DNA of 64,000 bases from assembly GCA_039090665.1 (NCBI GenBank), contig JAWCSL010000002.1, positions 1-64,000 on the forward strand, read 5' to 3'. The position numbers are program-made. Position 1 is the first letter of the stretch; each line of letters begins with the position of its first letter. Of the stretch, positions 27,001 through 30,000 are shown piece after piece. This DNA comes from Candidatus Aenigmatarchaeota archaeon (GTDB lineage Archaea; Aenigmatarchaeota; Aenigmatarchaeia; CG10238-14; SCSR01).

Positions 27001-30000
27001 CTTTATCAAGTTTGTTGCAAACTTCTATTGCTCTTTCCAAAATTTCATCTTTGCTCATTCCTCTTCTTTGAACAAAACCACCAAGCTCCAAAGAAATCTT
27101 ACTCAATATTGCAACAATTGTCTTATAATCCCAGCAATTTATATAAACTGTTTTTATTCCAGAATAATTTTCAAACTCACGAAAAACAAATTTTGCCGAA
27201 GCCGTCTTGCCTGTGCCCGGTGGTCCAAATATGAAAGTGTTTTGGGGAATTCTTTTATTTGCAGCAGGAAGTAAATTTTCAGCCAAATGCCTAACTTGCT
27301 CTTCTCTATGTGGTAAAGTCTCTGGTAAATACTCTGGCGATAAAACTTCTTCATTTTTAAAAACTTTAGACTCAATCATTCTACAATAATAGTTATCCTA
27401 CGATTATTTTTACCTTTGTTTTCCCTCTTAACTATCTTAATCCTTCCAATTTCTTTTGTATTAGCAACATGAGTGCCCCCATCAAGTTGAGCATCTATAT
27501 CACCAATTTCCACAACTCTCAAAATTTTAAACTGTTGATAATGTGATTTATCTGCCAATCTCATGAGTCTTGGGTTAGATTCGAGCTCTTCTTTAGAAAT
27601 TATTCTTGAGTTTATTGGTAAGCCAAGAGAAACAATTTCATTTGCTTTTTCTTCTATTTTTCTTGCAATTTCTTCATCAAGTTTTTCCAGGTTAAAATCC
27701 ATTCTTGCTCTATCCGGATAAATTTGGCTTCCCGTGAAAAGAATATCACCAAAATTTTTCACCAAAGCTGCAGAAATGACATGAGCAGCAGAATGTAGCC
27801 TCATGATGTTATACCTTCTTTCCCAATCTATTTTTCCATGAACTATGTCACCAACTTTAAAATCAGGCTCTTTCTCAAGCACATGAATTATATTTTCTTC
27901 CTCATCTTTTACCACATCAACAACTTTTATTCCATTTATTTCTCCCGTATCATTTATTTGTCCTCCACTTGTTGCATAGAAGCAAGTTTGATCGAGAATA
28001 ACTTTATTTCCATCTATAGCCAAAACTTTAGCATCAAATTCTTTTTGATATGCATTTTCCCAAAAAAGCTTTCTTGTAGCCATTCTATCTTATAGCTTCT
28101 TTTAGTTTTTTCAATATTTCTTCTTTCCCCCTTTCAATAATGTAAAACCCAAGCTTTGGGCCACTTTCAGAGTTTAAAATTATCTTGTAAAGAAGCTTAA
28201 AGAAATTTGGTATTTTTATGTCAAACTTCCTTGCAATTTCAAAAATATTCTTTTGAATTTCTTCTCCACTTTCTTCCCTTTCAACAATCTTAATAAGTTC
28301 AGCAATCGCTGCTTTTTCTTTTTCCCCAATTTTAACTTCGACTTCTTCTTTTATCTTACCAAAATCTTCATACCATCTTTTAGCAAATTCTATTCTTTTA
28401 GCAACTTCTTCTTTTATTTTTCCATTTTCTTCTTTCAACCTTCTATATTCTTTCAACTTTCTCACAGCAAACTCAACTTGATCTTTTTCAGGCAAAATTT
28501 TCACTATTTCAACCATAACTTCAAATGGTACATAAACAGAAGAAGCCTCTTTTGGTTTAACAACCGCAAGTTCATAAGCTCTTTTGAAATTGTTATCTTT
28601 CCTCTCATTTCCAGAACTTTGTAGACCAAAATATATCCTTTCAGCTTTATCAAATTCATTCCAAATCGATGGAACCATTTGTTTTAAGTTTATGTCTTTT
28701 GCTATTGTTAACCTTCCTTGAAACATCCAGTACCTCAAATGCTCAGGCTTCATATATTTCAACATATCAGGCACGGTTATAACATTCCCCAAGGATTTAG
28801 ACATCTTTTGCCCATTCACAAGAAAATGTTCATAAACTAATGGATAAGGAGGCTTCCATCCTAGAATCTTTACGATTTCTTTTCCAGTATCCCAGCTTCC
28901 ACCTGCAGCAGCATGCTCTTTTCCAAAAGGCTCACAAGTTGTTTTCAAAATAACCCAACGGGCTGGCCACTCGACACGCCAAGTAAGCTTAGCTTTACCA
29001 TTTAATATTGATGTTTTACCTTTATAGCCACATCCATTAACTTCATATTTTTTCTTTAGTAAAGTAGCTTCTTCCACACACTCATATTCAACACTAGCCT
29101 TCTTTTCTTCATATTTCAAAATTCTTGTGGTGCTTATTTTTCCACATTTTTCACATATTACATCTACCGGATACCAGTCTTCTGGTAGAGGAGTTGTCCT
29201 AAAATTGTTTAGAATTTTAACGATTTTTTCCCTTTTTTTCATAGCAAGTTTAATGAGATTGTTATACATCCCTTTTTTATACATCTCAATTCCTTTCAAA
29301 ATCTTAGGTTCAATTAACAAAGTTTTCAATTGTTGAATGAACTTCTCTTCAAAATGTTCTGCAAAGTTTTTGTGACAACTCCAGAAATCTGGGATAAAAC
29401 AAACAGGCACACCAAGATAATTTACAAGTTCTTTCGGCAAATCTTTGGGCACAGACCTTAGAGGATCCATATCATCAGAAACCCAAACCAATTCAGCAGA
29501 CACTTTCATTCTCTTAAGGGCAAGATAAACCGCATGTCCTCTCACAACATCATTCGCACTGCCTATATGTGGCTCGCCAGACATGCTAGTACCAGTTGTT
29601 ATAACTTGCTTCTTCACTTTCCATTTTTTTACAAGCTCTTTGGCCACTTGATCTGGCCAGAACTCGTATTCTTTTTCCATATTTTCAAATATTGGATTAA
29701 AGAAATAAAAATGGGCCCGGAGGGATTTGAACCCTCGACCCTCCGCTTTCTTCTATTAGGAGCACTCCCATATAAGGCGGATGCTCCACCAGGCTAAGCT
29801 TCCCTCTACCAGTTAAGGCAGATACGGGCCCAGCCTAGATTTTCCGGGCCCATTATCCATGTATATTTTAAATTTCATTTTCCTTCCTTTATATCTTAAA
29901 CCTTAAACATTATAAATAGCAAAAACCTTAAATACTTACAGATAATATAAAAATTAGTCCATTCTTTGTTTGAGGTGTTAAATATGACAAATGGAAAGGC

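Follow-up and report, generated by a model that had tools for sequence, protein, structure and literature searches.

A two-intron tRNA-Ile(UAU) gene as the probable sole reader of the abundant AUA codon in a Candidatus Aenigmatarchaeota archaeon

AUA decoding in described systems

Reading AUA but not AUG is one of the few spots in the genetic code that need a dedicated device, and most Archaea use TiaS for AUA. A different solution was described for the lineages ARMAN-2, -4 and -5, for which excerpts of Fujishima et al. (2011; PMC3239211) report a tRNA-Ile(UAU), no tRNA-Ile(CAU) and no TiaS homologue, together with splicing of the ARMAN-2 pre-tRNA-Ile(UAU) in vitro. Excerpts of two further papers (PMC8450103, PMC6000648) assign a UAU gene to Nanoarchaeum equitans as well as to Korarchaeum cryptofilum, both without tRNA-Ile2(CAU), and describe the Korarchaeum gene as having one intron and resembling that organism's own Ile(GAU) gene. 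The tRNA-Ile2(UAU) of Mycoplasma mobile reads AUA with an unmodified U34 and without a C34-modifying enzyme (PMC3575796, in excerpt). In excerpts of PMC3895270, U34 mutants of a haloarchaeal tRNA-Ile bound AUG as well, and therefore a U34 reader needs a fidelity device; the same paper gives pseudouridine at position 34 as the eukaryotic solution.

The gene described here lies in a window of 64,000 nucleotides, which is the whole stretch of DNA that was analyzed. The organism is a tiny hot-spring archaeon, Candidatus Aenigmatarchaeota. A preliminary description of the locus had stated that in Archaea the UAU solution was reported only for N. equitans and K. cryptofilum, which the findings on ARMAN-2, -4 and -5 do not support (PMC3239211, in excerpt); the basic solution is known from ARMAN, Nanoarchaeum and Korarchaeum, and this gene is a further case. 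Like the ARMAN lineages in that excerpt, we are dealing with an ultrasmall DPANN-type archaeon that has a UAU isoleucine tRNA in the absence of tRNA-Ile(CAU) and TiaS, and the 23-nt intron at site 37/38 has a 25-nt counterpart in ARMAN-2. In contrast to ARMAN, which belongs to another phylum, the gene has an added intron at site 9/10 with a splicing motif that draws on the leader, as well as a spare acceptor strand, and its intron 2 has a relaxed motif that is known from sequence, whereas the strict motif of ARMAN-2 was spliced in vitro (PMC3239211, in excerpt). Compared with Nanoarchaeum and Korarchaeum, the trait spans a phylum sample here (TiaS in 0/151 genomes), and AUA counts among the major codons instead of the rare ones. 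The likeness to M. mobile is a UAU reader that dispenses with a C34-modifying enzyme, but that organism is a bacterium, its gene has no introns, and its U34 state was measured, as were the adaptations of its IleRS and ribosome (PMC3575796, in excerpt). In eukaryotes, the tRNA-Ile(UAU) has pseudouridine at both 34 and 36; it resembles the present case in its UAU gene and its intron at 37/38. That intron is needed for the pseudouridine modification in eukaryotes, whereas no TruA/Pus1-family gene was found in this genome and a few genomes of the phylum (e.g., G117 and G109) have intronless UAU genes. TiaS and agmatidine serve the same task of reading AUA without AUG, but TiaS_FLD, TiaS_TCKD and a third CAU tRNA were all not found here. 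Literature searches that combined TiaS, DPANN and tRNA retrieved no paper, those that combined agmatidine with DPANN phylum names gave none with both among the matches listed, and those on archaeal UAU tRNAs after 2014 found, in main texts, nothing beyond the papers cited.

Gene structure and splicing signals

The gene and its parts are listed in Table 1. Rfam model RF00005 matches positions 29712-29804 of the minus strand at 32.3 bits, which is just above the gathering cut-off of 29, and its alignment omits four acceptor pairs, as exon 1 is on the far side of intron 1. ARAGORN missed the gene both by default and with introns allowed. In our own parse, the acceptor stem (7 bp) and the T stem (5 bp) are perfect when 29831-29825 serves as the 5' acceptor strand, and the cloverleaf that results from intron removal is complete, with acceptor, D, anticodon and T stems of 7, 4, 5 and 5 bp that are all paired and a T loop that matches the consensus. 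The predicted mature product is a class-I tRNA with the anticodon loop CUUAUAA. Exon 3 also holds the T arm, the 3' acceptor strand and the discriminator A, after which the T run is the likely transcription stop. No difference was seen over the stretch in contigs of runs X2, X3 and X8, which stem from three other studies, and the two-intron gene is therefore not an assembly artefact. DNA of the organism occurs in runs X1-X7. The stems, the relatives described below, these contigs and the Rfam match bear out the two-intron gene of the preliminary description, and its remark on the weak Rfam score and on ARAGORN likewise holds. Within the genome, the tRNA body is identical to tRNA-Lys(CUU) at 54/61 compared positions and to tRNA-Ile(GAU) at 52/61; the acceptor stem and T arm are those of tRNA-Lys(CUU), and the D arm is nearly that of tRNA-Ile(GAU).

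Table 1. Parts of the tRNA-Ile(UAU) gene and its flanks, in window positions
Feature	Positions	Strand	Basis or remark
Whole tRNA-Ile(UAU) gene	29712..29831	-	120 nt, mature 74 nt; Rfam, stems, orthologues in genus and order
Exon 1, 5' acceptor strand and positions 8 and 9	29823..29831	-	7/7 pairs with 29719-29713
Intron 1, 23 nt, site 9/10	29800..29822	-	Missing from G145, G024 and the X3 variant
Exon 2, D arm, 5' anticodon stem and loop letters 32-37	29771..29799	-	Rfam and parse
Anticodon UAU, positions 34-36	29772..29774	-	Loop CUUAUA, then intron
Intron 2, 23 nt, canonical 37/38 site	29748..29770	-	3' bulge beside anticodon stem
Exon 3, position 38, 3' anticodon stem and 5-nt variable loop	29712..29747	-	Rfam and parse
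Leader stretch complementary to 5' half of D arm	29832..29838	-	11-bp helix in MFE fold
Spare acceptor strand, exact upstream copy of 7-nt 5' acceptor strand	29845..29851	-	
T run directly after discriminator	29707..29711	-	Read from sequence; likely transcription stop

Intron 1 is absent from the same-genus orthologues of G145 and G024, in which the acceptor strand is followed by two letters and then an unbroken D arm, and a co-occurring variant contig in run X3 lacks it as well. Comparison with these intron-1-less relatives confirms the predicted junction 1, although, owing to a repeated A, a cut shifted by one base would describe the sequence just as well. The bulge-helix-bulge model of intron 1 has a 10-bp outer helix, a central helix of three G-C pairs and one G.A mismatch, a 3-nt 3' bulge and a 5-bp inner hairpin, and its energy is -22.8 kcal/mol as compared with -26.8 for the MFE. 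Its outer helix consists of the leader stretch together with acceptor positions 1-3. By hand reading, the initiator gene on contig C11 has the same leader arrangement. The spare acceptor strand is a second perfect acceptor partner in the parse, and in the precursor's MFE fold it is paired to the 3' acceptor strand; no such copy is present upstream of the intron-1-less orthologues L008 and L010.

In intron 2, two A and position 38 make up the 3' bulge, which adjoins the anticodon stem. Three pairs form the central helix together with an A.G mismatch. The 5' cut, whose exact position is a prediction, falls within an internal loop or a weak helix of A-U pairs and not in a clean 3-nt bulge. Both same-genus relatives share this relaxed arrangement. 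Across orthologues, the intron-2 central helix has 4/4 pairs in 12 genes, 3/4 in 6 and at most 2 in 10; the orthologues of family f3 have the perfect 4-bp helix at the same 37/38 site. The preliminary description had relied on a bulge-helix-bulge scan, and each intron can indeed be drawn as such a motif with one purine-purine mismatch, which against the strict hBHBh' form (two 3-nt bulges, a 4-bp helix and flanking helices) leaves 3/4 central pairs in both, but the 5' site of intron 2 is not clean in this genus. The intron ends in two GAA repeats, and introns of the genus are about 5 letters longer than those of family f3. CAU arises in no splice register, in line with the preliminary description; where the loop stays at 7 nt, the anticodon is UAU, UAA, UGA or AGA. 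By hand reading, introns occur in more than half of the genome's tRNA genes, many at non-canonical sites, and nearly all of them end in GAA or a similar triplet before the exon by eye. A single alpha-type splicing endonuclease frame of 191 aa was found; the endonuclease is placed at C12:23832-24110.

Based on these features, we propose a path by which the gene would yield an AUA reader. The precursor would be transcribed with its leader, and the splicing endonuclease would cut out the two 23-nt introns. The signal for intron 1 would arise from pairing of the leader and the first acceptor bases with the D-arm region, during which time the upstream copy of the acceptor strand could hold the 3' end, and intron 2 would be removed at the canonical 37/38 site through its relaxed motif. 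Ligation of the exons would produce the 74-nt tRNA, which IleRS would charge with isoleucine. In a lineage that has neither TiaS nor a CAU-type tRNA-Ile2, it would then be U34, either unmodified or modified by some enzyme, that pairs with the A of AUA.

Conservation, codon use and TiaS

Matches to the stretch from exon 2 to the 3' end were found in 13 genomes at 71-92% identity, and the pattern of UAU loop plus T arm is present in 44/51 other genomes of the order and in 68/151 genomes in all, which agrees with the earlier claim that other families have the gene. A more relaxed UAU pattern gave as many matches in a reversed control and was used only for choosing tRNA-like ones by eye. Among 29 distinct genes (44 loci), perfect stems are kept despite differing stem sequences, and the loop CUUAUA is followed by an intron in 28/29 parsed orthologues. 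In family f3, the acceptor stem and D arm of the orthologues are those found in the tRNA-Ile(GAU) of this genome. By eye, complementarity between the first intron letters (2 to 4) and positions 30-32 is preserved where both partners have changed.

AUA is an abundant codon in this genome. Among 531 ORFs of at least 120 aa, we counted 6616 ATA (40.8 per 1000), 6594 ATT and 1722 ATC codons, so that AUA is about as common as AUU and close to the figures given earlier. When EF-1alpha was aligned with 29 non-DPANN homologues, its 21 ATA codons fell on I (0.40), V (0.18) and L (0.15), which is nearly the profile of its ATT codons (I 0.42, V 0.29, L 0.14), and its ATG codons aligned with M (0.42). As judged from the alignment of this one protein, AUA codons behave as isoleucine codons.

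In this genome, neither TiaS_FLD (PF08489) nor TiaS_TCKD (PF22641) was matched at E<=10. Each exceeded the cut-off in 0/151 genomes sampled from the phylum, of which 89 reach a completeness of 90% or more, whereas both domains were detected in 4/4 archaeal genomes used as a positive control. The absence of TiaS from genome and phylum, previously based on FLD, is thereby extended to the TCKD domain. Sub-threshold matches (13 for FLD and 16 for TCKD, E 0.003-0.25) were often within long unrelated frames or contained stops. The genome also gave no match for TilS_C, the Elp3 C domain, a TruA-family enzyme or TruD.

The tRNA complement was typed without ARAGORN, which with introns allowed mistypes many intron-bearing genes (e.g., elongator Met is called Ser). 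A CAU anticodon is possible in 2/41 tRNA genes or fragments, namely elongator Met (C1:35745-35851) and the initiator (C11:1075-1183). In a loose scan for CAU loops whose D arm and anticodon stem are intact, only these two of 48 candidates had a tRNA-like context by eye. The anticodon of the tRNA at window positions 8629-8714 could not be fixed by hand reading. Over the phylum, CAU-type genes form two classes, with pattern matches never exceeding three per genome; the one additional match that was examined proved to be a Tyr intron. However, the assembly is 90.6% complete and has no detectable tRNA genes for the indispensable anticodons UUC, UAC, UGA and UCU, and therefore absences in this single assembly carry little weight. 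The earlier count of two CAU tRNAs thus stands, but with an incomplete tRNA set the lack of a third is weak evidence alone.

Alternative readings and implications

Taken together, the sequence evidence makes it very probable that this is a working tRNA-Ile(UAU) gene and the organism's only reader of AUA. A decaying gene, whose two introns and poor second signal would keep the precursor from ever becoming a working tRNA, would fit the relaxed motif of intron 2 and the single 191-aa endonuclease frame, as alpha-type homotetramers prefer strict motifs. We regard this as very unlikely, given that a codon occurring 6616 times has no other candidate reader, that every stem is perfect, that pairing in the orthologues is kept through changes on both strands, and that the same relaxed intron 2 persists in both same-genus relatives; furthermore, a genome with so many intron-bearing tRNA genes, often interrupted at non-canonical sites, must have an endonuclease that copes with such substrates. 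Slightly less likely still is that the UAU tRNA is real but accompanied by the classical route, with TiaS and a tRNA-Ile2 hidden in the unassembled part of the genome (roughly 9%) or in an over-interrupted gene. The completeness estimate and the undetected essential tRNAs leave room for this scenario, and the Gly-CCC gene on contig C4, which scores 20.5 bits, has a T loop interrupted by some 106 nt of intron and is half seen by standard scans, shows that such genes can hide. Against it stand the 0/151 result for both TiaS domains, with 89 genomes at least 90% complete, the two CAU classes of the phylum, and the loose scan, in which only the known genes looked like tRNAs.

The two remaining explanations accept the gene but change its meaning. 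Use of another splice register, to give UAA, UGA or AGA, draws on the 7-nt loop that these registers also keep, on the two GAA repeats and on the extra letters relative to family f3. Variable-loop length separates Leu and Ser tRNAs from other classes, and the 5-nt variable loop here is unfit for either; in addition, by hand reading the 37/38 register alone places a 3-nt bulge beside the anticodon stem, introns in this genome nearly all end GAA-like before the exon, and the 4-bp central helix at 37/38 is perfect in 12 orthologues, all of which leaves little chance for a different anticodon. The least probable of the four explanations is that AUA has been reassigned, with the UAU tRNA charged with, e.g., Lys, or with Met as in mitochondria. 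The acceptor stem and T arm shared with tRNA-Lys(CUU) would suit a lysine identity, but in EF-1alpha ATA and ATT codons alike align with Ile, Val and Leu, K and M are outside the six commonest residues at these sites, and the orthologues of other families have an Ile(GAU)-type acceptor stem.

For the tRNA-Ile(UAU) reading, the unmodified U34 of M. mobile is a possible model, in that no Elp3, TruA-family or TruD match was found in this genome. A broader view, which we put forward as a speculation more likely wrong than right, is that most DPANN, including this whole phylum, dropped agmatidine and read a now abundant AUA with a U34 tRNA-Ile without the usual U34-modifying enzymes, AUG being rejected by something new in the tRNA body, in IleRS or in the ribosome, or by a modification of the precursor; our analysis covered five genomes outside the phylum. 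On this view, the kept complementarity between the intron and positions 30-32 would show the anticodon in a small loop that exists only in the precursor, and this loop could be a handle for such an AUG-rejecting step.

With 0/151 genomes encoding TiaS, a phylum-level sample joins the few archaea known to have a plain UAU gene in its place, and in this archaeon AUA ranks with the commonest codons. For annotation the finding matters as well: because ARAGORN is blind to the gene and the Rfam model barely detects it, genomes of the group could be scored as having no AUA reader.

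A two-intron tRNA-Ile(UAU) gene

The Rfam tRNA model matched the proposed reader of AUA with 32.3 bits against a cut-off of 29, leaving four acceptor pairs unaligned, and ARAGORN returned no tRNA call at the locus in either its default or its intron-allowing mode; the preliminary description had likewise given 32 bits for Rfam and a miss by ARAGORN. Using a search that located the T arm and then the acceptor strand before seeking a 7-nt partner upstream, we found a perfect acceptor-stem partner, which results in a gene of 120 nt. A cloverleaf reading of the DNA divides this gene into three exons and two introns and predicts a mature tRNA-Ile(UAU) of 74 nt with a variable loop of 5 nt. 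Together, the reading and the partner search show that the coordinates and two-intron anatomy first proposed were correct. Contigs from three runs of three other studies (X2, X3 and X8) showed 0 differences over the stretch, with a single record spanning 29600-29870 in X8 and two overlapping records in each of X2 and X3, which indicates that the two-intron gene is not an assembly artefact. None of the runs that contain the stretch is recorded as RNA. At the level of DNA sequence, we consider the observation of this gene confirmed.

Coordinates of the tRNA-Ile(UAU) gene and of other features of the genome (C numbers, contigs of the genome; other positions, window)
Feature	Position	Strand	Basis or remark
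tRNA-Ile(UAU) gene	29712-29831	-	two introns
Rfam tRNA match	29804-29712	-
Upstream copy of acceptor strand	29851-29845	-	exact copy
Leader	29838-29832	-
Acceptor-stem partner	29831-29825	-	partner search
Exon 1	29831-29823	-	tRNA positions 1-9, cloverleaf reading
Intron 1	29822-29800	-	23 nt, cloverleaf reading
Exon 2	29799-29771	-	D arm, 5' anticodon stem and loop positions 32-37
Anticodon UAU	29774-29772	-	cloverleaf reading
Intron 2	29770-29748	-	23 nt, cloverleaf reading
Exon 3	29747-29712	-	cloverleaf reading
tRNA with 12-nt anticodon-loop insertion	8629-8714	-	ARAGORN call Ala-UGC
CAU gene, elongator type (Met)	C1:35745-35851		32-nt intron; C'/D'-like module
CAU gene, initiator type	C11:1075-1183
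Lys-UUU	C9:45746-45857		C'/D'-like module
Leu-CAA	C12:17153-17268		C'/D'-like module
Trp	C12:31978-32080		C'/D'-like module
Gln-UUG	C12:7759-7871		C'/D'-like module
Cys	C13:23315-23418		C'/D'-like module
Gly-CCC	C4:6327-6508	-	T-loop intron
Leu tRNA fragment	C3:1-88		3' half only
Second GUU-anticodon tRNA	C9:9746-9819	-
Splicing endonuclease catalytic domain	C12:23832-24110	-	in a 191-aa frame

Drawn as a bulge-helix-bulge, intron 1 would have an outer helix of 10 bp, a 5' bulge in which the first base of the intron joins positions 8 and 9, a central helix that combines three G-C pairs with one G.A mismatch, a 3' bulge of 3 nt consisting of two A and position 10, and an inner hairpin of 5 bp. 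The energy of this model is -22.8 kcal/mol, versus -26.8 kcal/mol for the minimum free energy (MFE) fold of the same 50 nt. In the MFE fold of the precursor, the leader and first acceptor bases pair with the 5' half of the D arm, and the upstream copy of the acceptor strand pairs with the 3' acceptor strand. The junction is settled by the orthologues of two same-genus genomes (G145 and G024), which lack intron 1 and the spare acceptor copy and run uninterrupted from the acceptor strand through two bases into the D arm. A longer contig of run X3 carries a variant that likewise lacks intron 1, with a loose end at 29800. By hand reading, the initiator tRNA on C11, also split by an intron, is laid out in the same way but with a perfect central helix of 4 bp; its leader likewise complements the D stem, and a spare acceptor copy of its own lies upstream of position 1183. 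An exact upstream strand copy and a D-arm-complementary leader accompany both genes with an intron just past the acceptor strand, and the same-genus UAU genes without intron 1 have neither.

Anticodon register and distribution of the gene

Splice registers that leave a 7-nt loop would yield the anticodon UAU, UAA, UGA or AGA, and never CAU. An anticodon of UAA or UGA implies a leucine or serine tRNA body with a long variable arm, and this body has no such arm. At the 3' end of intron 2, a 3-nt bulge of two A and position 38 adjoins the anticodon stem, which fits the usual motif; of the four bases preceding it, three pair with positions 32-34, and A35 lies opposite a G. At the 5' cut site, the MFE fold has a short A-U helix and no clean bulge, which makes the intron 2 motif a relaxed one in this genus. 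Among 29 distinct orthologues with perfect stems, parsed from 44 loci, an intron of 13-28 nt directly follows the sixth loop letter in 28, and one is intronless. With the 37/38 register, all four central-helix pairs form in 12 genes (including every gene of family f3), three form in 6 genes (including this genus) and at most two form in 10 genes, mostly of family f2, where by eye a cut shifted by one base fits better and leaves the mature sequence unchanged. The parsed orthologues thus support 37/38 as the probable register. Their stem sequences vary with pairing kept, although a filter that demanded perfect stems keeps this from being an unbiased test of covariation. Intron letters 2-4 also stay complementary, as judged by eye, to tRNA positions 32-30 despite changes on both sides (e.g., loci L009, L043, L051 and L156), with a middle pair of G.C or G.U, A.U or U.A depending on the locus; in this genus, only two of these three pairs are formed.

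With the UAU gene as BLAST query, 13 genomes of the family and order gave matches of 71-92% identity over exon 2 through the 3' end. A pattern of UAU loop followed by T arm matched 68 of 151 sampled phylum genomes, with 44/51 in the order excluding the genome under study (25/31 in family f1, 9/10 in f2, 7/7 in f3 and 1/1 in each of f4, f5 and f6) and 23/99 outside it, counts that are rough because the pattern is narrow and some matches are plainly not tRNAs. A few matches are intronless UAU genes (e.g., in G117 and G109).

TiaS, CAU tRNAs and other tRNA genes

The alternative is the classical route, in which the archaeal agmatidine enzyme TiaS acts on a CAU-type tRNA-Ile2. Neither TiaS_FLD (PF08489) nor TiaS_TCKD (PF22641) matched this genome at E<=10, and each scored above cut-off in 0 of the 151 phylum genomes sampled, 89 of them with a completeness of 90% or more; sub-threshold weak matches numbered 13 and 16, respectively. 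Both domains were above cut-off in all four archaeal genomes used as positive controls, which supports the proposed absence of TiaS from this genome and from sampled genomes of the phylum. TilS_C also had no match in the genome. CAU was attainable in any register at only 2 of the 41 Rfam tRNA matches or fragments, which are the elongator and initiator genes. A T-arm scan of the genome gave 49 sites, 10 of them beyond known genes and none of these tRNA-like, and a loose scan that required an intact anticodon stem and D arm around a CAU loop gave 48 candidates, among which only the same two CAU genes were recognized by eye. A CAU pattern matched 99 of the 151 phylum genomes, at most three times per genome, and by eye the matches fell into two kinds, the initiator type and an elongator type whose members share an intron. 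The one third match examined, in G045, turned out to be a tRNA-Tyr intron.

The assembly is 90.6% complete, and no gene was detected in it for the anticodons UUC (Glu), UAC (Val), UGA (Ser) or UCU (Arg), which are either unassembled or too interrupted for detection; the Leu tRNA on C3 is severed by the contig end. In the Gly-CCC gene, an 11-bp inverted repeat closes a T-loop intron of some 106 nt, and the Rfam match of 20.5 bits covers the 5' part only, which shows that heavily interrupted tRNA genes can escape such scans. The lack of a third CAU gene is accordingly weak evidence when this genome is taken by itself. The earlier claim that there is no third CAU tRNA stands insofar as only two CAU genes were found, but it lends weak support given the incomplete tRNA set, and the argument is carried by the phylum-wide absence of TiaS.

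Other tRNA genes of the genome have further features. By hand reading, introns lie at 9/10, 26/27, 30/31 and 32/33 and in the D and T loops, yet only one splicing endonuclease catalytic domain was found. The canonical introns of six tRNAs share a 3' module resembling box C'/D' of a methylation guide, directly preceded by a stretch complementary to the anticodon loop of their own tRNA. In the Met gene, the base five positions upstream of the D-like box would oppose position 34, and elongator Met introns across the phylum carry the same module. By analogy with the tRNA-Trp intron of Euryarchaeota, these introns may be cis guides, here in six tRNAs. The tRNA with the 12-nt anticodon-loop insertion shares its acceptor stem and T arm with tRNA-Glu(CUC); its anticodon is GCG, GAA, GCA or UGC depending on splice register, and a UUC reading would need two cuts. 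The second GUU-anticodon tRNA has an unpaired first acceptor pair.

Probable isoleucine identity, precedents and the decoding of AUA

The body of the UAU tRNA equals that of tRNA-Lys(CUU) from the same genome at 54 of 61 compared positions, with identical acceptor stem and T arm, and that of tRNA-Ile(GAU) at 52 of 61, with a nearly identical D arm; the third-closest tRNA has 46 positions in common. In family f3 orthologues, the acceptor stem and D arm are those of the Ile(GAU) gene of the genome under study. The meaning of AUA was assessed in one protein, EF-1alpha, which has 21 ATA codons and was aligned with 29 non-DPANN homologues picked from 80 loci by record titles (Bathyarchaeia, methanogens, Thermococcus, Nitrososphaeraceae, Promethearchaeota and one other). 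Aligned residues were I, V and L at fractions of 0.40, 0.18 and 0.15 for ATA codons and 0.42, 0.29 and 0.14 for ATT codons, and M at 0.42 for ATG codons. The profile at ATA indicates that AUA is isoleucine in this genome, as judged from the aligned sequences. Across 531 ORFs no shorter than 120 aa, ATA occurs 6616 times (40.8 per 1000), ATT 6594 times and ATC 1722 times, and the G+C content is 33.8%.

An Elp3 C domain, a TruA-family enzyme and TruD were each absent from the genome in searches whose controls worked, and none of the U34 routes of other organisms is thus evident here. Passages of published reports describe U34 of Mycoplasma mobile tRNA-Ile(UAU) as unmodified (PMC3575796) and U34 mutants of a haloarchaeal tRNA-Ile as bearing cnm5U and binding AUG too (PMC3895270).

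The preliminary description had confined the trait to Nanoarchaeum and Korarchaeum, whose tRNA-Ile(UAU) is mentioned in passages of earlier work (PMC8450103, PMC6000648). This was wrong, as ARMAN-2, -4 and -5 are described in a passage of a prior report as having tRNA-Ile(UAU) and neither tRNA-Ile(CAU) nor TiaS homologues (PMC3239211). According to the same source, the ARMAN-2 precursor has a 37/38 intron of 25 nt, versus 23 nt here, and is cleaved in vitro by its own endonuclease (PMC3239211). The gene described here differs by an additional intron at 9/10, with a putative leader-assisted splicing motif and a spare acceptor strand. A literature search, with subscription journals and supplements outside its scope, found no report of the trait for this phylum. 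In a set of five genomes from outside the phylum, reached through the EF-1alpha loci, TiaS_TCKD was detected only in a record labelled Altiarchaeota, and tRNA-like intron-bearing UAU matches were found in records labelled Woesearchaeota and Micrarchaeota, which fits a trait widespread in DPANN, although five genomes of uncertain completeness prove little.

Taken together, AUA is very probably decoded by tRNA-Ile(UAU) in an organism without TiaS, which is an already known solution rather than a new one.
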